Part shown: positions 1,451 to 59,404 of the stretch, in pieces
How the letters are laid out: every line of letters begins with the position of its first letter
How positions within the stretch are numbered: position 1 is the stretch's first letter
NCBI GenBank assembly: GCA_031278975.1
Contig: JAITJL010000001.1
Location: 21,680 to 85,679, forward strand
Direction of reading: 5' to 3'
Length of the DNA: 64,000 nt
DNA from: Puniceicoccales bacterium
GTDB taxonomy: Bacteria; Verrucomicrobiota; Verrucomicrobiia; Opitutales; UBA9783
Made by a program: the position numbers and the translations under genes
The notes under the pieces: generated by a model
The model's database searches: none
Told to the model about the DNA's origin: nothing
The model's input: only the letters and a program-made list of their open reading frames with translations

Positions 1451-3580
1451 ATGCTAAAGCAAAAGTATTTCTGCAAAGTAGATGGGCTTGATTTGACTTT
1501 TTCAACAGGGTCCATTGCTAAATTAACAAATGGGGCGGTAATCGTTCAATCGGGACAAACGGTCGTTTTTGTGAGTGCAACAATGGCTCCAGAGGTCAGC
1601 GAAAATCAAACTTTTTTCCCTCTCATCGTGGATTATCGAGAAAAATTTTCTGCCGCTGGTCGTTTCCCCGGAGGATACGTTAAACGTGAAGGGAAACCGA
1701 CCGAAAAAGAAATTTTAACCTCACGGTTGTGCGATCGTCCTTTGCGTCCTTTATTTCCAAAAGACTTCCTCAATGAAGTACAAATTGTAGGTCTTTTATT
1801 GGCAGCTGACCTTAACAATGAGCCCGATATACTTATGGTTAACGGTGCTTCGGCTGCCCTTATGTGCTCCAATATTCCTTGGAATGGACCTATTGCTTGC
1901 GTACGTATTGGGCAGGTCAACGGCCAATTCGTTGTCAACCCAACAAATGATCAACAATTTGAGTCCGACTTAGATCTCATTTATGTGGGAAATAAAGAGG
2001 ATGCGTTAATGATAGAAGGTTGCGCGGATCAGTTGCCGGAAGATCGTTTTATAGAAGCGCTTCACTTTGCACATGCAGCTATCCAACCTATCCTAACGGC
2101 GCAAGAAGCGTTGGCCCGTCAATGCAATCCTTCAAAGTTATCTTACGAACCTCGTGTAGTTGCAGATCATGTTGTCGACTTCTGTGAAAAAGCGCTCGGA
2201 GAACGCCTTAAAAACGTCTGGTACAAAACACCTAAGCAACACGTGCAAACGGAAATAAAAAATCTCAAAAAAGAACTTGTTGAAAGTGCCCTGGAGTCGC
2301 AATTATTCGCAGACAAAACTTTGGCAAAAAATGAAATTGATACAGCCTTTGAAAAGTTGCAGGAAAAACTCTGTCGTACCGCTATCCTCGACGAATCGTT
2401 ACGTTTAGATCATCGGCAGGCGGAAGAATTGAGGGAAATTTCTTGTGAGGTGGATGTTTTACCGAAAATTGTCCACGGTTCCGCTATTTTTGAACGCGGA
2501 GAAACCCAAGCACTTGTCAGTGCTACTTTAGGGTCCGGTCGCGATGCTCAGGACTTGGACGGATTAACAGGGGGAGCTCAATCGAAATCATTCATTTTGC
2601 ATTACAACTTTCCTCCTTACTCCGTGGGTGAAGTAGGTCGTTTTGGATTTACCAATCGTCGGGAAATTGGTCATGGAGCGTTGGCAGAACGCTCTCTACT
2701 GCCAATTGTCCCTTCAGAATCGGAATTTCCATATTCTATCCGCTTAGTTTCCGATATCATGGGATCCAATGGGTCAACTTCCATGGCGTCCGTCTGCGGA
2801 GGGGCACTGGCACTCATGGATGCGGGTGTACCTATTTTGGCACCTGTGGCTGGAATCTCTGTAGGTCTTGTTACGGAGTACGATGAAAATCACAAAATTG
2901 AACGTTACCGCCTAATCACTGATATTTTGGGCGAAGAAGACCATTTTGGTGACATGGATTTTAAGATTTGCGGTACGGAAACGGGTATTACAGGTTTTCA
3001 ATTGGATCTAAAGATTGCCGGGTTGCCACTCAACATTATGGCAGAGGCCATTCACCAAAATCGCAGAGCGCGTATGCAAATTTTAGCAATCATGCGTGCA
3101 ACACTTCCTCAATCGCGCAGCAAAATTAGTCAGTACGCTCCACATTTCCAGGATATTCGTATCAATCCGGAAAAGATTGGCGCACTCATCGGACCTGGAG
3201 GTAAAAACATTAAACGTTTAACCGAGACGATGGGATGTCAAATCGACATTTGTGAAGATAATTCCGGAGCAATACGTATCTATGCCAAAAGTGAAGCATC
3301 TCTTAAACAGGTGACTGATGAAATCAGCAGCTTGGACAAGAAGATCGAAGTGGGTAAAACCTATCAAGGTATTGTACGTACCATTAAAGACTTTGGTGTA
3401 TTTGTTGAATGTTTACCTGGACAGGAAGGCATGGTCCATGTCTCGGAGCTTTCGGACTGCAAAGTGCGTCATCCAAGCGATGTATGCAGCGTTGGAGACA
3501 CTATGGTTGTTGTTTGCTTGGGAATTGATGAGCGTGGCAAAGTACGTTTAAGCAAAAAGGCTGCTTCCATCCATCCGTAA
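1451..3580 (+). CDS. pnp: Polyribonucleotide nucleotidyltransferase (PNPase)
   Basis: 709 aa with two RNase PH-like halves ([28 protein letters not shown]; [33 protein letters not shown]). A KH domain ([14 protein letters not shown]) and an S1 domain ([19 protein letters not shown]) sit at the C-terminus. Confidence 0.96.
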
Positions 3581-41013: not shown

Positions 41014-42540
41014 ATGAATGAGACAAACGGAGAACCGGAATTTTCTAAATTAAGACGCATATTTTTCCCCGTTCATCGGTATGAATTGAAAAAAGTTATT
41101 CCCATGGGAATGATTTTTTTCTTCATATTATTCAATTACACCTGCTTAAGGAATATTAAAGATTCTCTGGTTGTTACCAATACGGGTGCAGAAGCACTCT
41201 CTTACTTAAAGTTGTTTTGCGTAACACCCTCCGCCATCATATTTATGCTTTTGTACGCCAAAGCGAGCAATATTTTAAGTAACGAAAAATTGTTTTACGC
41301 CACTCTTTCACCTTTTATTTTATTTTTTGGATTGTTTGCGTTTGTCATTTACCCCAATCGTGGATGGTTTCATCCAACTGCAGCAACGATTGCAAGTTGG
41401 CAAGTCCAGTTACCTATTTTACATTGGCCACTCGCTTTGCTTGGCGTGTGGAGTTACAGCGTATTCTACGTTTTGTCAGAATTATGGGGAAGCGCACTAC
41501 TATCTTTATCCTTTTGGCAATTTGCAAATCAAGTAACACGCGTTTCTGAAGCCAAACGCGTCTACGCTTTTTTTGGTTTAATGGCCCAATTTTCCCTATT
41601 GTTTTCGGGTGTCTTGGGAGATTATTTTTCAAATATTTCGGATAAAGTAAGCCCTGATGTAGATCCATGGCAGATTTCCCTTAATTGGCTTATGGGTACC
41701 GTTGTTTTATTCGGTATCGTTACCATGTGTATTTACCGATGGATCTATAAATACGTTTTGACCGACAAACGTTTCTACGATAAGCCAGAGTTGCCAGGAG
41801 TCAAAAAGGGGAAGAAAAAAGCTGGACTCATTCAAAGTTTGAAGACGATCTTTACGTCGCCTTATTTAGGACTCATTGCCATGTTGGTCATTTGTTATGG
41901 GATCAGCGTCAACGTCATTGAAGGTTTATGGAAAAGTCAGCTGAAGTTACAATATCACAACGAAAATGATTACAACACGTTTATGAGTCGTTTTACGATA
42001 TTAACGGGACTTGCTTCCATCGTTATGTTAATTGTTGGAGGAAATATACTACGCATTTGCCGTTGGGTGGTCGCAGCAATGTCTACACCGGTTGTATTTT
42101 TGGTGGGTGGTACCATTTTCTTTTCATTTGTTTTATTTCGTCAAGAATTGACAGGTATATTGGTTCAGTGGGGCACCAATCCGGTTACCATGGCCGTATT
42201 TTTGGGGGCAACGATTGTGATTGCATCCAAATCCACCAAATATGCTTTGTTTGATCTAACAAAAGAAATGGCCTACATCCCCTTGGATGAAGAAATGAAA
42301 GTTAAAGGTAAAGCTGTCGTAGATGTTGTAGGGGGTCGTTTGGGTAAATCGGGAGGTGCTTTCATTCAAGTTGCTTTATTTTCTATTGTAAGCAGTTTAG
42401 CAGGCGTAAAAGCAACCTATTATCAAATTGTCCCTTACGTATTTGCTTTATTTATCTTGGGGTGTATTGTGTGGATTTTATCCGTAAGCGCTTTGGGGAA
42501 ACGTGTGGAAAATGCTAACAGAGAAGCGGGAGAGGCTTAA
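41014..42540 (+). CDS. tlc: ATP/ADP (nucleotide) translocase, TLC/NTT family
   Basis: 508 aa and polytopic. The N-terminus LRRIFFPVHRYELKKVIPMGMIFFFILFNYTCLRNIKDSLVVT is the hallmark TLC-family block. KSTKYALFDLTKEMAYIPLDEEMKVKGKAVVDVVGGRLGKSGGA is also family-typical. Confidence 0.9.
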   Translation: MNETNGEPEFSKLRRIFFPVHRYELKKVIPMGMIFFFILFNYTCLRNIKDSLVVTNTGAEALSYLKLFCVTPSAIIFMLLYAKASNILSNEKLFYATLSPFILFFGLFAFVIYPNRGWFHPTAATIASWQVQLPILHWPLALLGVWSYSVFYVLSELWGSALLSLSFWQFANQVTRVSEAKRVYAFFGLMAQFSLLFSGVLGDYFSNISDKVSPDVDPWQISLNWLMGTVVLFGIVTMCIYRWIYKYVLTDKRFYDKPELPGVKKGKKKAGLIQSLKTIFTSPYLGLIAMLVICYGISVNVIEGLWKSQLKLQYHNENDYNTFMSRFTILTGLASIVMLIVGGNILRICRWVVAAMSTPVVFLVGGTIFFSFVLFRQELTGILVQWGTNPVTMAVFLGATIVIASKSTKYALFDLTKEMAYIPLDEEMKVKGKAVVDVVGGRLGKSGGAFIQVALFSIVSSLAGVKATYYQIVPYVFALFILGCIVWILSVSALGKRVENANREAGEA

Positions 42541-54183: not shown

Positions 54184-54494
54184 TGAATGCTTCTTAAATA
54201 TTTATATATTGTTTAACAAATATTTTTCCTATACGTAATCTGTGATTTAAACTCTTTTGCAAACACTGCAAGTATTTTTAAAAATTTCTTTGCGTGCTGC
54301 CATAAGACAAGGCAATGTAGCGCAAAAACAAACCAAATTGCAAGAAAGTTTTAGGGCTTGAAAAAAGGTCTTGACTTATTTTCCCCAATTATCCTTGGGG
54401 AAATTCAACTATAATTTTTATGGCAACGTTACAAACCGGTATTTGTCATTTATGACAAAAATGTCAGTCACGTTAGTTCAAAACTCAATAATAC

Positions 54495-55334
54495 CTATTT
54501 TTCAGCTTTCCGTATGCTTTCTGTCTTCCGTGGAAATTCTGGAAAATTGTAATACACATCTCTATCTTTGATGAGGTACGTATCCCTGATGTTGTAGATA
54601 TGTTCTTTGCAATCATCCATCGATTGAAATTTATTCCACACGATTTTGAAGGCATTTGCATTTGTTATGTACCATGATAATCCTGCTTGCATGGTACTAC
54701 AATCAGCCCAACCGAGCGTATTTTCAAAGTCGAACCCAGTCCCACTTTTCCTAAAAGGTACATAGGTAAACCGATCTCCTTTATACAAATGATTCGGCAA
54801 AAAACAACGGATATTTCCAGCAGGAACCGTATTGTCCGAACCATTCGGCGGAAACTCGTTAAAAATCAAATAATAGTTGCGACACGCTTTTACCACGCAT
54901 TCAATATTGTATACGCATTCGTTGAGGCGAAAATCTTCCGTGGCTTTTTTAAACCCCGGAACGGCGATGGTGGCCAGAATCGCCACAATGCACAGCGTTA
55001 CAACGATTTCGATGAGCGTAAAACCGTTACGGTTTACGGATGTGGATGAATACTTCGGTGCTCGGCCAAGTCCAGACGTCCGGAGAGGAACCGACTCAGG
55101 ATATCTTGCTGCTTGACAAGGTCGGAGAAACCTGTTTTGGCTTAGGGAGGAATGCTCCAATGCTCGGCTAGATATCGGCGCCCGGAGGGAAATCGATGTT
55201 CCAGAACACCTCGCCGCTTGACCTGGAACCGACTTAGGACGCTCTGTCGCAGTTAAACAGTCAGATGCCTTGGCGTCTCGATGAAAACCGTTTCGACTTG
55301 GGGATGGACATTTTAACTCCTGGACTGGCCTCAA
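54495..55334 (-). CDS. Prepilin-type N-terminal cleavage/methylation-domain protein (pseudopilin/pilin-like). The 5' end is anomalous and it may be a pseudogene.
   Basis: The class III signal core G|FTLIEIVVTLCIVAILATIAVP has its Phe(+1) codon at 55020-55022, so the mature part is 54495..55022. The 104 in-frame upstream codons contain no ATG or GTG. Only TTG at 55334 and TTG at 55160 are available, implying 104- or 46-aa leaders. Confidence 0.55.
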   Translation of the reverse strand: MRPVQELKCPSPSRNGFHRDAKASDCLTATERPKSVPGQAARCSGTSISLRAPISSRALEHSSLSQNRFLRPCQAARYPESVPLRTSGLGRAPKYSSTSVNRNGFTLIEIVVTLCIVAILATIAVPGFKKATEDFRLNECVYNIECVVKACRNYYLIFNEFPPNGSDNTVPAGNIRCFLPNHLYKGDRFTYVPFRKSGTGFDFENTLGWADCSTMQAGLSWYITNANAFKIVWNKFQSMDDCKEHIYNIRDTYLIKDRDVYYNFPEFPRKTESIRKAEK

Positions 55335-55651
55335 TCTTCGATGAGGGTCTCAATCCTCGACGAAATTCTAATGCCTGGATTGGTCCTAACCTTCGACCAG
55401 GTTCTGAACTCCGGTTCAGTTTCAATACCTGGCTTCGCCTAAATCTTCGATGGGATCCTGACCTTTGATTGGGTTCCAACCCTTGGCTCAGTCCCAACCG
55501 TTGAACTGGCTTTAGATCCGAGATCAGTCCAAATCTTCGGTAGGGTTCCACTCCCCGGTTCGGTCTCAACCCTCGACGAAATTCTAATTCCCGGCTCGTT
55601 CCTAATTCCGAAGCTGGTCCCAATCTTTGACCGGAGTCCTCTAACTTCGGA
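55310..55651. repeat. Phased degenerate tandem array, 19 units of 18 bp (consensus about GGTYCYAAYCYTCGRNNN), G+C-rich
   Basis: Units read in register: attttaactcctggactg, gcctcaatcttcgatgag, ggtctcaatcctcgacga, aattctaatgcctggatt, ggtcctaaccttcgacca, ggttctgaactccggttc, ... ggtcccaatctttgaccg, gagtcctctaacttcgga. The 36-mers at 55346-55381 and 55562-55597 are 31/36 identical and sit exactly 12 units apart. Confidence 0.8.
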
Positions 55652-57357
55652 ATGCTATTGGCAACTAAGCGCTTAGCTGTCTTGGGTCTTCACTACTAAA
55701 TTAGTATAGCCTTTCCTTACTACCTCTGTCAAGGGCTTTTTGGGGGATTTCATAAAGTTGTTCGGAGGGTTTTCATGGATTTTGGAAACAAATCTTCTGT
55801 TATTCGGAGGTTTTTAGGTCGTTCAATGCAACGGCCGGAGCATGTTCATCTTACGGCAAAACCGAGTCGCGTGTTAAATAACTAAAACCCTCGGATGCAG
55901 TGTGGATGCACCGCTGCGCTCATTACAGAGGAACACTAGCAAACGGTAAAATCATAAGAAAATACCTTCGAAAATTCCTCAGTTATGACGAAAATGATGC
56001 AGTTGCGGCAAAACTATGTTCAAAAACCCAAGTTGGTGGTGGTAAAGCTTATGCGGTTCTCCGGGATATATGCGTTTATATCTAACTTCCCGGAGAATTT
56101 CCAAAAGCTTATATAAGACTATCTCATCCAAATGAATTAAGGACCTATTTACACTTAAAACATGCATTTATAGGTTAAATTTTACGGTGCATTGCCTATC
56201 TATGGCATTATAACACCTTGCAAAAGTTATTTCAAAGCCTCGTTACGCTCCATCCACATGCCACCCTACGTCGGATATTTCGCCGGGCATAGACGTATTG
56301 GCGTAAAATTCCATTGGGTTCAATGAAGGGTAGGACTTAGTTCCATCAGAAAGATCAAATAGGGTCAATGGTGCAAACACCGAATCTCATGTCGAACAAC
56401 GATCCATCGGACGCCTCGTGAATATAACCTCTGTACTCGCCGAAGTTACAAGCATTATAGCAGGCATGCAAGCCGTGAGATAGCATCTTCAAAAGCCTCG
56501 ACTGCAAGCTAAGATGACGAAGACAATGTTATCTCGGCAAAAGCCGGATTCATAGACTTAGATTGCAGTGATAAACCCGATTACAAATAAGTTGCCAAAC
56601 GAAAACGAAAGTTTTCCATTCTACGGATGCATTCAATGAACCTTCATCTATACAAACCAACTTTACCAAATTTTTAAAGGCGGTATGCCGCTTTGTTTCA
56701 TGTTACATTTCCTACGCTTGTATGTACTCATTGCATCGTTCCAAGAGATATCCAAAACCATCGTCCGGATATCAACAGACGCTCGATTGCCTTTCGACGG
56801 CGTTTATTAAAGAGCAACAGCGCGTATAGTACCCCAATTTCGAGTATGCGTTATATTCCTTTATCCACGACCCGTTTCCCTACTCCTATCCAAGAATCTA
56901 TTGAGAAACAATAGACGCAAATCGTTGTGTAATCAGATAATACGCTCGCACGTGCCTCGGTTATCCTTGGTTATAACGCGCATCTGTTTGTAGCAGTGCA
57001 TACACTTGCTTCAACGAGATACTTTCACAGCTAAAGTATGTTTTTTCTCTATGGATACTACCTCAAGAAAAGTACACAGAACAAGACGGAAGCCCCTCTA
57101 TTTAAGACAAGTATACCCCTAATAAGAATTAAAATAGTCTACTTTATTTTTGGAAGATTCCTTCAACAGGTTACATAAAACTTAAGTTTTAAAGCTAAAG
57201 TTTTATAAACATTTTGGGGATCACTTTACTTAAAAATAAAAGCTTTTGGATTTATATCAGGATTCTATTGTGCGTTATTAGAAGATGTATTGAGTTGGTA
57301 ATATTACAGCAAGAGAAAGTATTGCAAAACATCTATGATGCGTACTTTGGTTTTTGG

Positions 57358-58326
57358 TTATTGAAAACGTGTTAAAATTTTTGATGGGAAAAGTTCATTG
57401 ATACTTTGGTCGGTATGAATACGAGTAATGGCTTCGGCAAACAGTTGTGCGATCGATAAAACCGTGAAGGAAAATTTGCCTAAATTTTGAGATTGAACAG
57501 GTAGCGTATCGGTTGTAATGAATTCGTCCAATCCACTTTGGGCTATTTTCCCCAAAACATCTTGGCGTGTAACGGGATGCGTAATCATCGCAATAACACG
57601 TTTTGCGCCTGCTTGTTTAAGCAATTGGGTGGCTGCTATCAGTGTGTTTCCCGTATCGGATATATCATCCACCAAAATGACATGTTTTTTTTGGGCTTCT
57701 CCAATGATATTTAAGACTTCTACCTCGTAAGCACTTTTACGTCGTTTTGCAATCATTCCCACCGAACATTCCAGGAAGTCTGCGTAGGCAATTGCCCGTT
57801 TAACACCGCCCAAATCTGGAGAAAATACAGCCCAGGAAGCTTGTGGATGCGCTTGCTTCAGGTATTCAAAAAAAACTGGACTTGCATACAAATGGTCTAC
57901 CGGTATATCAAAAAACCCGACGATTTGCTGCGCGTGCAAATCCATTGTCAAAATGCGATTTACTCCGGCGGCAACAAGCAGATTTGCGACTAATTTTGAC
58001 GTAATGGGAACGCGAGGCTTATCTTTCCTATCTTGTCGTGCGTAAGCATAAAAGGGAATGACGGCCGTAATACGGCTTGCGGATGCACGTCGAGCCGCAT
58101 CAATCATGACCAATAGTTCCACAAGATGGTGATTAACGGGACTCGCAATGGATTGCACTAAAAAAACATCTGCACCTCGAATGTTTTCTTGAATTTGTAC
58201 AAAAGTTTCTCCATTTGGAAACGAATTAACCAAGGCATGTCCCAGTTTAATTCCCAAATGTTCACAAATATTTTTGGCCAGAGTAGGGTGAGCATTTCCA
58301 GAGAAAATTTTAATCTTTGCGTTCAT
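57358..58326 (-). CDS. prs: Ribose-phosphate pyrophosphokinase
   Basis: IKIFSGNAHPTLAKNICEHLG, VIPFYAYARQDRK, MDLHAQQIVGFFDIPVDHL, and the PRPP-binding loop VILVDDISDTGNTL. Confidence 0.93.
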   Translation of the reverse strand: MNAKIKIFSGNAHPTLAKNICEHLGIKLGHALVNSFPNGETFVQIQENIRGADVFLVQSIASPVNHHLVELLVMIDAARRASASRITAVIPFYAYARQDRKDKPRVPITSKLVANLLVAAGVNRILTMDLHAQQIVGFFDIPVDHLYASPVFFEYLKQAHPQASWAVFSPDLGGVKRAIAYADFLECSVGMIAKRRKSAYEVEVLNIIGEAQKKHVILVDDISDTGNTLIAATQLLKQAGAKRVIAMITHPVTRQDVLGKIAQSGLDEFITTDTLPVQSQNLGKFSFTVLSIAQLFAEAITRIHTDQSINELFPSKILTRFQ

Positions 58327-59404
58327 CTTTACTGAGAAAACATGCTTTTGTGGTATCGGTTGTCAAATAAGCAAATGTTTTTTCCAAGTTGTCTACACGT
58401 CTGAATAATTCCGGCAATCGGCGTTTTAATGCATCAATACGGTGAGCTAACATGTAAGAAAGCGTCGGGGTACCCCGTACAAAACTATTATCTTCCAAAT
58501 CGTGATTTACGCCCGATTGAGCTCCAATCATCACGTGATTACCAACACATAAGTGCCCTGTTAAACCCGCTTGCCCTCCAATAACGGCGTAATCACCGAT
58601 CGTTGTGCTTCCGGAAATACCCACAAAAGCAATAATGAAACAGTGCTTGCCAATCACCACGTTATGACCAATCTGTACCAAATTATCAATTTTTGTGCCT
58701 TCGCCAATGCGTGTTTCATTAAAACGTGCCCTATCTATTGTCGTATTTGCACCTACATCAACTTCATCTTCCAATACAACACGTCCCAGTTGCGGCGACC
58801 GCTTATGGCATCCATTTTCCGTTTCGTACCCGTAACCTTCGGATCCCAGAACAACGCCGGCATCGATAAAGCAATTGCGTCCAATTTCTGTGCCATCCAA
58901 AATAGAACAATGGGGGCGAATGAATGTTCCTCGTTTAACGAAAACTTCTTCTCCAACCACAACATGTGCCTGTAAACAGACACCTTCCTCAATGATTGTA
59001 TTGGGTCCAACAACGCACAGAGGTCCCACGTAGGCTCTGGGAGAAATCTTTGCGCTTGGATCAACGATAGCTGTAGCATGCATACCCGTAGGTATAGGTT
59101 TTTTGCATTGCAGTTCAATGTCTCGGCAGATAGCATCCAGTGCTTTGGATGGATTTTCTACCATAAGCAAAGCTTGTCCCGGATGTGGAGAGCCTACATA
59201 AGATTCAGGTACAAGAATAAGCGACGCTTTAGAACCGAATACCTCTGCTTTGTATTTCTGATTGCCTAAAAAAGAAATGTCACCTGTTTTCGCTTTATTT
59301 AAACTGGCAATTCCGGTAAAAACATCCACATTCAATTTGCCTTGAATTTTTGAAGGATTTACTAATTCAATGATACGATTTAAAGTGTAATGAATAGTAA
59401 ACAT
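58310..59404 (-). CDS. lpxD: UDP-3-O-acylglucosamine N-acyltransferase
   Basis: LpxD N-terminal domain (GDISFLGNQKYKAEVFGSKASLILVPE), a long hexapeptide-repeat beta-helix, and a C-terminal helical tail. It lies downstream of skp and bamA. Confidence 0.9.
   Translation of the reverse strand: MFTIHYTLNRIIELVNPSKIQGKLNVDVFTGIASLNKAKTGDISFLGNQKYKAEVFGSKASLILVPESYVGSPHPGQALLMVENPSKALDAICRDIELQCKKPIPTGMHATAIVDPSAKISPRAYVGPLCVVGPNTIIEEGVCLQAHVVVGEEVFVKRGTFIRPHCSILDGTEIGRNCFIDAGVVLGSEGYGYETENGCHKRSPQLGRVVLEDEVDVGANTTIDRARFNETRIGEGTKIDNLVQIGHNVVIGKHCFIIAFVGISGSTTIGDYAVIGGQAGLTGHLCVGNHVMIGAQSGVNHDLEDNSFVRGTPTLSYMLAHRIDALKRRLPELFRRVDNLEKTFAYLTTDTTKACFLSKDERKD

Follow-up and report, generated by a model that had tools for sequence, protein, structure and literature searches.

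A degenerate 18-nt repeat array as a probable part of the 5' leader of a type IV pilin-like gene in a Puniceicoccales bacterium

Contingency repeats lie in the leader-peptide coding regions of the surface proteins encoded by Neisseria opa (CTCTT repeats) and pilC (poly-G), and sponge RNAs of the CsrB/RsmZ type carry ∼18–22 GGA repeats. The leader peptides of type IV prepilins (class III signal peptides) are 6–26 aa long, remain cytoplasmic and are cleaved after Gly (PMC4471445). At the pil1 locus of Streptococcus gallolyticus, where phase variation works by attenuation, 5-nt GCAGA repeats are combined with a short leader peptide and with a terminator that acts prematurely (Danne et al. 2014, PMC3894217). 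Here we describe an array of degenerate 18-nt units at 55310–55651 (minus strand) of a 64,000-nt stretch of DNA, hereafter the window, from a bacterium of the Puniceicoccales (Verrucomicrobiota; contig JAITJL010000001.1, assembly GCA_031278975.1). We propose, with a probability of roughly 0.6, that these repeats belong to a long 5' leader of a minus-strand type IV pilin-like gene, and that in the window copy this leader is disconnected from the pilin by a single extra base. Coordinates are those of the window unless a related locus is named; related loci and proteins are designated by L and P numbers, respectively.

The repeat array and its pilin-like gene

The array consists of ∼19 units, each of the form [CGA/CAR][RGR][TTR][GRA][CYN][NNY] on the minus strand, where it would read (R/Q)-(R/G)-L-(G/E/R/K)-(P/L)-x. 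It is the top-ranked 342-nt stretch of the window for 18-nt phasing. Autocorrelation peaked at lags of 18, 36, 54 and 72 (z 5.8–8.3 against shuffles), and the lag-18 signal survived a codon-triplet shuffle control as the top signal. In the phasing of the first-pass annotation, which had been made from the sequence alone and had described nineteen phased 18-bp repeats at this place, the mean pairwise identity of the 19 units was 44% compared to 25.5% in shuffles (z ∼24); the description is borne out by both measures. The periodicity is seen by autocorrelation but not by Tandem Repeats Finder (TRF), which reported no 18-nt array in 54–57 kb down to a score of 30, because the units are too degenerate. 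The spacing between units is 19 nt instead of 18 only once (units at 55327 and 55346), and this single spacing accounts for extra autocorrelation signals at lags 19 and 55. The higher-order copy and the base composition noted earlier also hold: 55346–55381 and 55562–55597 are identical at 31 of 36 positions with an offset of exactly 216 nt (12 units), a copy that the repeat search extended to 44 nt at 86% (family D3), and G+C is 31/60 in 55381–55440, 50% over the array and 40.7% in the window. No further occurrence of the array unit was found elsewhere in the 64 kb. The units abut head to tail and have no spacers, in agreement with the earlier statement that the array is not CRISPR-like; a CRISPR array was excluded on the ground that the units are contiguous, without unique spacers.

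Both open frames listed in the first pass exist, namely the minus-strand open reading frame (ORF) 55261..55623, which we refer to as the hexad or leader ORF, and a start-less plus-strand frame at 55443–55673. Pfam, searched with E up to 0.1, matched no family on this ORF or on the plus-strand frames, and an Rfam scan of the whole window returned two tRNAs only, with no match at the array. Minimum free energy folds of 55030–55700 were not stabler than those of shuffles on either strand (z +0.37 and +0.62), and on this ground a long hairpin between the GGA-rich left half (55060–55310) and the TCC-rich array was rejected. A left-handed beta-helix hexapeptide-repeat protein (PF00132) was excluded as well, as no Hexapep profile matched and the motif differs. 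A genuine hexapeptide-repeat protein, LpxD (58310..59404), is encoded nearby and scored 97.8 bits.

On the minus strand, which carries the pilin-like gene, the array is upstream and falls within the gene's own 5' leader. The pilin ORF (54495..55334) has 279 aa, with the prepilin N-methylation motif at codons 101–124. The cleavage and N-methylation motif RNG/FTLIEIV (55034–55002; a slash marks the cleavage site) contains the G-F-x-x-x-E pattern. Cleavage would fall between GGT 55025–55023 and TTT 55022–55020, and the site together with a mature pilin-like protein of ∼175 aa occupies 54495..55025 on the minus strand (stop 54497–54495). PF07963 matched the pilin ORF at 25.3 bits (cut-off 21.2) and TIGR02532 at 29 bits (cut-off 16.3). 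A hydrophobic alpha1-N helix, FTLIEIVVTLCIVAILATIAVPGF, follows the cleavage site, and phmmer matched residues 1–64 of PilE and PilA structures (8p3b, 5kua and 2hi2; E ∼5e-6). The ratio of nonsynonymous to synonymous differences (pN/pS) in the mature pilin was 0.43 in frame versus 0.92 and 2.0 off-frame. The first-pass annotation had placed the array immediately 5' of the pilin gene. It is indeed upstream on the minus strand, but its proximal end lies ∼290 nt from the first mature-pilin codon (F, 55022–55020) and it extends over the start (TTG 55334) of the longest pilin ORF. No ATG, GTG or TTG occurs within 49 codons upstream of the cleavage Gly, and the first in-frame start gives a 103-aa leader. 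The window's own pilin gene is annotated as a truncated 163-aa protein.

The 279-aa pilin ORF has 64 homologs, and all the named ones are from metagenome-assembled genomes of Puniceicoccales. Many of them have ordinary leaders of 8–14 aa starting with ATG or TTG, such as MKCSKVGALSRGG/F. About twenty carry long Met-less N-terminal extensions with hexapeptides of the window type (DLKPKQ, RLEPSQ, GLRPSQ), and these extensions also hold a recurring pseudo-cleavage motif, PSVSRNGF-HRDTKTSDRLIA. Eleven, including the window's gene (P0001), are annotated as truncated proteins that start inside the transmembrane helix. We compared the DNA of nine related leaders (L001, L002, L083, L084, two genes of L085, L206, L207 and L208). 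L001 and L002 are syntenic orthologs (pilin-GrpE-DnaJ[-RecA]), and the others are pilin copies at other genomic positions; L209 is a second assembly, identical to L208. The same promoter-leader-pilin cassette was observed in these relatives, which supports the earlier proposal that the array is tied to the pilin gene. Five of the 8 related leaders that are in frame with their pilin carry 18-nt hexapeptide repeats of the form (R/Q)-x-L-x-(P/L)-x (L001, L002, L084, L085a and L085b). In each of the hexad-type leader segments tested, lag 18 ranked first or second among the periodicity signals (z 4.7–9.5). Array length differs among the orthologs, with ∼17–19 units in the window and ∼10 plus 15 in L001. 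Met codons are absent from the long leader ORFs of L001, L002, L084, L085 and the window (none in at least 399 codons of L084).

Reading frame of the leader and state of the window copy

All 8 related leaders lack stops in the pilin-phase frame (67, 73, 112, 122, 126, at least 133, 241 and at least 399 codons), and the other two frames of the same leaders contain 2–35 stops. The non-repeat part of the window leader (the B module; 55026..55274, minus strand) is open in the pilin frame only. As a control for stops in the repeats, each of the 18 unit columns was permuted independently, keeping the column composition. The window hexad ORF has 0 stops versus 4.0 expected (P = 0.002), and the corresponding expectations for L001, L084, L085a and L002, where again none was seen, were 9.3, 18.2, 3.3 and 5.3, respectively. 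The probability of a stop-free hexad frame ranged from <2e-4 to 0.01 at every locus tested. The openness of the hexad frame is therefore not a by-product of the repetition, and this is true of the window array also. In the CCN/CTN codon column, the third base is fully random (A4 G5 T3 C3) and bases 1 and 2 are constrained, while variation in the TTR and CAR/CGR columns is mainly between synonymous purines. These sequence patterns suggest that the array and its leader are probably translated, that the residue sequence is barely constrained and that openness alone is selected. The stop-free hexad frame and the homologous in-frame extensions of relatives are in accord with the hexapeptide-coding origin that the first-pass annotation had read from the period. 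Its judgement that no frame gives a convincing gene is contradicted, since the minus-strand hexad frame is homologous to pilin-fused extensions and significantly free of stops. The window leader ORF is also homologous to a separate upstream leader ORF, P0065.

Several observations weigh against a translated leader joined to the pilin. Five of the 8 in-frame loci were found via protein matches that included the extension, so that the in-phase count is biased. The pN/pS of the B module was 0.64 in frame versus 0.61 and 0.70 off-frame, which gives no sign of frame-specific purifying selection, and the mean information content of the units is not lowest at third codon positions. The neighbours of the Leu codon likewise gave only weak evidence of selection at the residue level. 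There is no ATG anywhere in these leaders, the start codon is a candidate only, and a Shine-Dalgarno site would be expected closer to the TTG than the 13 nt that separate it from GAGGA. At two loci, the window and L208/L209, the leader is out of phase and may thus sometimes act as a separate upstream ORF. Finally, leaders of 100–400 aa are far beyond the known range of 6–26 aa (PMC4471445).

In the window, the leader ORF (55261..55623, minus strand) has 120 codons of (R/Q)-x-L-x-(P/L)-x hexapeptides and differs by +1 from the pilin ORF (55334..54495). A single extra base at 55340..55342, which produces the 19-nt unit spacing, takes the hexads out of the leader frame and into that of the pilin. 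Past this base (∼55341), canonical units run on in the pilin frame, where ...RGLRPS is followed by RRLRPV QELKCP SPSRNG F.... It is because of this frameshift that the leader ORF ends at TGA 55263–55261. The last stop in the pilin frame is TGA 55352–55350, and the pilin ORF opens after it. In L001, L002 and L084, the corresponding ORF is continuous at the extra-base site. The first canonical start in the pilin frame is a TTG at 55332..55334 (minus strand), the Leu codon of the next hexad unit, at which the ORF 54495..55334 begins; in the ortholog L002, P0003 is annotated as starting at this same position. No long homopolymer surrounds the extra base (CCCTCAT), and the large housekeeping ORFs across the window are intact, which makes widespread indel error unlikely. 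L210, an independent contig found with the window's DnaJ, breaks inside the pilin gene and is uninformative on the extra base. The window copy is therefore either switched off or freshly decaying, or expressed from TTG 55334.

A CCC_U site was also noted at 55347–55344 (minus strand), two codons past the last pilin-frame stop, at which a +1 slip would join the hexad and pilin frames. That the window pilin needs such a ribosomal slip is purely speculative.

Cassette elements, related leaders and genomic setting

A sigma-70-type promoter lies upstream of the array, at 55703..55732 on the minus strand (-35 TTGACA 55732–55727, 18-nt spacer, -10 TATACT 55708–55703). It is near-consensus, with 11 of 12 consensus positions matched, and its sequence, CTTGACAGAGGTAG, occurs only once in the window. 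The promoter is kept in L001, L083, L085 (two copies) and L208. A conserved block upstream of it (55808..55862, minus strand) matched L001 274–326 by blastn (78% over 55 nt). The motif GTGAAGACC at 55685..55693 (minus strand), ∼9 nt after the -10 box, is conserved in the five-locus alignment A2 and probably lies where the transcript begins. L083 and L206 have the GTG of this motif in the pilin frame; in the window, the frame of this GTG stops after 6 codons. A perfect 12-nt palindrome, CTAAGCGCTTAG, follows at 55665..55676, of which AGCGCTTAGT is conserved in A2. The AAGCGCTTAG palindrome is conserved across loci and, near the start of the transcript, contributes a TAG stop to one of the two non-leader frames.

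An imperfect hairpin at 55631..55650 (minus strand), CCGAAG...CUCCGG with the Shine-Dalgarno-like loop GAGGAC, was predicted from the RNAalifold consensus of 5 leaders. The hairpin-like segment reads CCGGAG...GAGGAC...CUCCGG across loci, and its support is weak, with one compensatory pair only. The candidate start of the leader ORF is a TTG at 55621..55623 (minus strand), the first canonical start past the in-frame stops at 55699–55691. TTGG is invariant in A2, and the TTG homologous to 55623 is the annotated start of P0002 (JGI) and P0032 (NCBI). RNAalifold, run on 55612–55693 (minus strand) and the homologous segments of the 5 leaders, also paired CCAAY with RUUGG, a weakly supported pairing that would hide this TTG.

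Between the array and the cleavage site, an SRNGF-HRD pseudo-copy of the prepilin cleavage motif was found at 55275..55298 (minus strand), with no hydrophobic helix after it. It corresponds to the direct repeat D4 (55284–55306 versus 55020–55042), and its motif PSVSRNGFHRDTKTSDRLIA recurs in P0002 (twice), P0003, P0006, P0007, P0010, P0023 and P0033. When the B module is aligned with that of L002, the window has 102 nt (34 codons) inserted in the region 55060–55250, an indel that keeps the reading frame, and the module has internal direct repeats (D7 and D8; 55087–55101/55225–55239 at 93% and 55097–55117/55202–55222 at 76%). The idea that this module had degenerated from a copy of the pilin 5' coding region was rejected, as no similarity was found beyond the query overlap. 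No terminator-like site was found on the minus strand in 54300–56100.

Three of the related leaders carry perfect short tandem tracts as detected by TRF: AAGACCTC in L083 (3004–3118; 8 nt × 14.4), AAGACCC in L206 (8–137; 7 nt × 18.4) and AAGACACC in L207 (1–114; 8 nt × at least 14.2), the last of which runs into the contig end. Matches between the tract units were 99–100%. The tracts sit directly after GTGAAGACC, which is itself the first tract unit, and either take the place of the hexads or come before them. In the two of these loci that contain the GTG, L083 and L206, it stays in the pilin frame through the tract, and just beyond the tract the wrong frames hit TAG and TAA within the palindrome. 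As judged from sequence, these three copies appear to have a slipped-strand contingency architecture, from which on/off phase switching would be expected. The slippage-prone contingency element that the first-pass annotation had considered fits these copies with perfect 7- or 8-nt tracts, but not the window array, where the units are 18 nt long and 44% alike and TRF reports nothing. In L208 (∼3018–3024; same in L209), the hexad ORF is out of the pilin frame and its TGA overlaps the pilin ATG (gtgTGATGcgt), which is a putative translational-coupling arrangement. Five independent contigs (L002, L084, L206, L207 and L210) end at position 1 in the leader or at the pilin 5' end, consistent with multi-copy repeats breaking short-read assemblies.

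Searches for the leader outside this family gave little. HMMER with the hexad ORF against 1.84 billion representatives returned only P0065 and two unrelated low-complexity proteins, and a word-index search with the P0002 leader (E up to 0.01) gave no match. No hexad ORF homolog outside the Puniceicoccales lineage was found in the searches made. The 14-mer promoter core had at least 120 chance matches in metagenome contigs, and among the matches listed none was accompanied by a leader or a pilin. A profile search of genome contigs with the pilin alignment was discarded, since the generic GFTLIE pattern dominated and unrelated pilins were returned. Exact-protein look-ups of P0053, P0063 and P0001 returned no record, and no paper on this Puniceicoccales pilin family was found in the literature.

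The neighbours of the pilin gene are grpE-dnaJ-recA on one side and prs-lpxD-skp-bamA on the other. No prepilin peptidase and no assembly ATPase or platform gene was seen among the window ORFs scanned; a T2SSE-type ATPase gene adjoins the related pilin copy in L084. The ∼1.5 kb at 55870–57358, which separates the pilin cassette from prs (57358..58326, minus strand), contains no ORF of more than 62 aa and resembles none of the related loci; this sequence could be decayed or of an unrecognised kind. A 508-aa ORF at 41014–42540 on the plus strand encodes a full-length TLC-family ATP/ADP translocase (PF03219, 607 bits). Translocases of this family are a hallmark of obligate intracellular bacteria, and its presence suggests that the organism is an endosymbiont or an energy parasite.

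Competing explanations and known systems

The hexad ORF could also be a functional, separate upstream ORF that controls the pilin by termination-reinitiation coupling, by opening of the mRNA or by an attenuation-like effect, so that the window state would be a working one and not damage. The TGA-ATG overlap in L208/L209 points that way, as do the window hexad ORF, kept stop-free and overlapping the start of the pilin ORF, and the precedent of leader-peptide repeats that control pil1 in S. gallolyticus (PMC3894217). However, 8 of 10 leaders have the two ORFs joined in a single frame, and the leader strand carries no terminator-like site. The stop of the window leader ORF comes 73 nt past TTG 55334 and has no start codon nearby, and the hexad register of this ORF passes seamlessly into the pilin frame beyond one base, which looks like a recent insertion. 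We consider such a separate ORF unlikely. It is still somewhat harder to believe that the array is an untranslated regulatory element, either a 5' untranslated region with protein-binding 18-nt units (CsrB-like titration) or an array of binding sites on DNA, with the open frames as a by-product. In its favour are the lack of residue-level constraint and of a canonical ATG, the GGA in many minus-strand units, a window array that is out of the pilin frame, and stretches of the arrays that are fairly open in two of the three frames. On the other hand, stops are depleted in one specific frame at fixed column composition, the stop-free frame is in pilin phase in 8 related leaders, non-repeat modules included, and a random fourfold-degenerate site is a coding-like signature; neither strand has excess fold stability (z +0.4 and +0.6), and Rfam gave no match.

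For the window copy alone, the frameshift may be an artefact of the assembly or the consensus, or belong to a minority variant, the real gene being an intact fusion. One extra base alone separates two ORFs that are still open on both sides, and repeats of this kind break short-read assemblies, as in the five related contigs that end in the leader or the pilin 5' end. The sequence around the extra base and the intact long housekeeping ORFs argue against an error, and a second out-of-frame locus (L208/L209) was assembled identically from two samples; we regard an artefact as improbable. The origins proposed in the first pass, foreign DNA inserted into the pilin 5' region or the wreck of an independent repeat-protein gene, are largely refuted and have a very slight chance of being correct. 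The G+C difference between the array and the window, the lack of a Pfam match and the lack of hexad ORF homologs outside the lineage would suit them. But in two relatives the syntenic locus has the array between a conserved promoter and the cleavage motif, as do other pilin copies, the cassette with its 18-nt periodicity is found there too, relatives have the array fused in frame to the pilin, and no mobile-element features were seen. What stands of the destroyed gene is that a single-base insertion disconnects the leader in the window; the thing disconnected is the repeat part of a pilin leader and not an independent gene.

We return to the array as part of a long pilin leader. The Puniceicoccales pilin family would be expressed from a conserved four-part cassette. 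It would start with a strong sigma-70-type promoter, followed by a short conserved 5' segment containing GTGAAGACC, a palindrome by which the wrong frames are closed and a hairpin that includes GAGGA. Next would come a probable TTG start, and then a Met-free, basic, Pro/Leu/Arg-rich stretch of 18-nt units and duplicated modules, leading in frame into ...SRNG/FTLIE. The leader appears to be translated, with residues that hardly matter and a frame that must stay open. Since class III leaders stay cytoplasmic and are cut after Gly, the long basic extension would be topologically tolerable, and the prepilin peptidase would discard it. In the three related copies with 7- or 8-nt tracts, the tract copy number is predicted to set the reading frame and thus to cause on/off phase variation. 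The 18-nt arrays would be diverged in-frame repeats, which may lengthen the leader but could not switch its frame. The extra base at ∼55341 parts the two ORFs of the window, and this copy would be locked off or decaying unless TTG 55334 initiates.

A wider proposal, which we make tentatively, is that Puniceicoccales prepilins with giant Met-free hexapeptide leaders of 70 to more than 400 aa, started at a TTG beside a conserved promoter and removed by the peptidase in the cytoplasm, form a new class of class III signal peptides. Such leaders could possibly exceed all those described by one to two orders of magnitude in length, and be selected for an open frame only, although we hold this with some doubt. 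It is equally conjectural that the giant leader serves as a frame-sensing spacer for the 7/8-nt tracts, the in-frame 18-nt expansions and the module duplications. If the leaders are indeed translated, the accepted picture of prepilin signal peptides of 6–26 residues needs widening, and a disposable, cytoplasmic, repeat-prone coding spacer would be a simple stochastic on/off control for a family of surface-filament genes. Variable pilin expression could bear on the dealings of a verrucomicrobial symbiont with its host, because the ATP/ADP translocase marks intracellular life. There are practical consequences also: gene callers are inconsistent on these genes, which are cut inside the transmembrane helix, extended to an arbitrary TTG or GTG, or split, and the leader repeats break short-read assemblies.

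Among the known systems, the hexapeptide transferases of PF00132 share the six-residue period with the array, but its motif, (R/Q)-x-L-x-(P/L)-x, is Arg/Pro/Gly-rich and probably disordered, and is not [LIV]-G-x4. CsrB/RsmZ RNAs resemble the array in its size (∼340 nt, ∼19 repeats) and in the GGA of many minus-strand units. In contrast to them, the array has no Rfam match or excess structure and is contiguous with a protein-coding gene, and its GGA falls in the Gly/Arg/Glu codon column of an open frame. The Neisseria opa and pilC systems share with this pilin family a multi-copy set of surface-protein genes and a tract placed between start codon and signal peptide, as in L083, L206 and L207 (14–18 copies). 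The window array differs from them in its 18-nt units, a multiple of 3 and 44% alike, in which slippage would be rare and frame-neutral, and in a disruption that is a point insertion and not a change of copy number. The pil1 locus of S. gallolyticus has its repeats inside a translated upstream leader of a pilus gene. The array may be placed in a similar way, with a leader ORF that is separate in the window and L208; however, no terminator is predicted in the window leader, and most relatives fuse the leader to the pilin. Class III signal peptides are matched by the G/F-T-L-I-E motif and hydrophobic alpha1-N helix of the window gene, and by an extension that is hydrophilic, basic and Gly-ended and would stay cytoplasmic by the known topology. 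Known leaders begin with Met, whereas the extensions of the relatives are Met-free, contain hexapeptide repeats, run from 67 to at least 399 codons and have a candidate TTG start. The long basic leader extension is thus topologically compatible with known prepilins and unprecedented in length.

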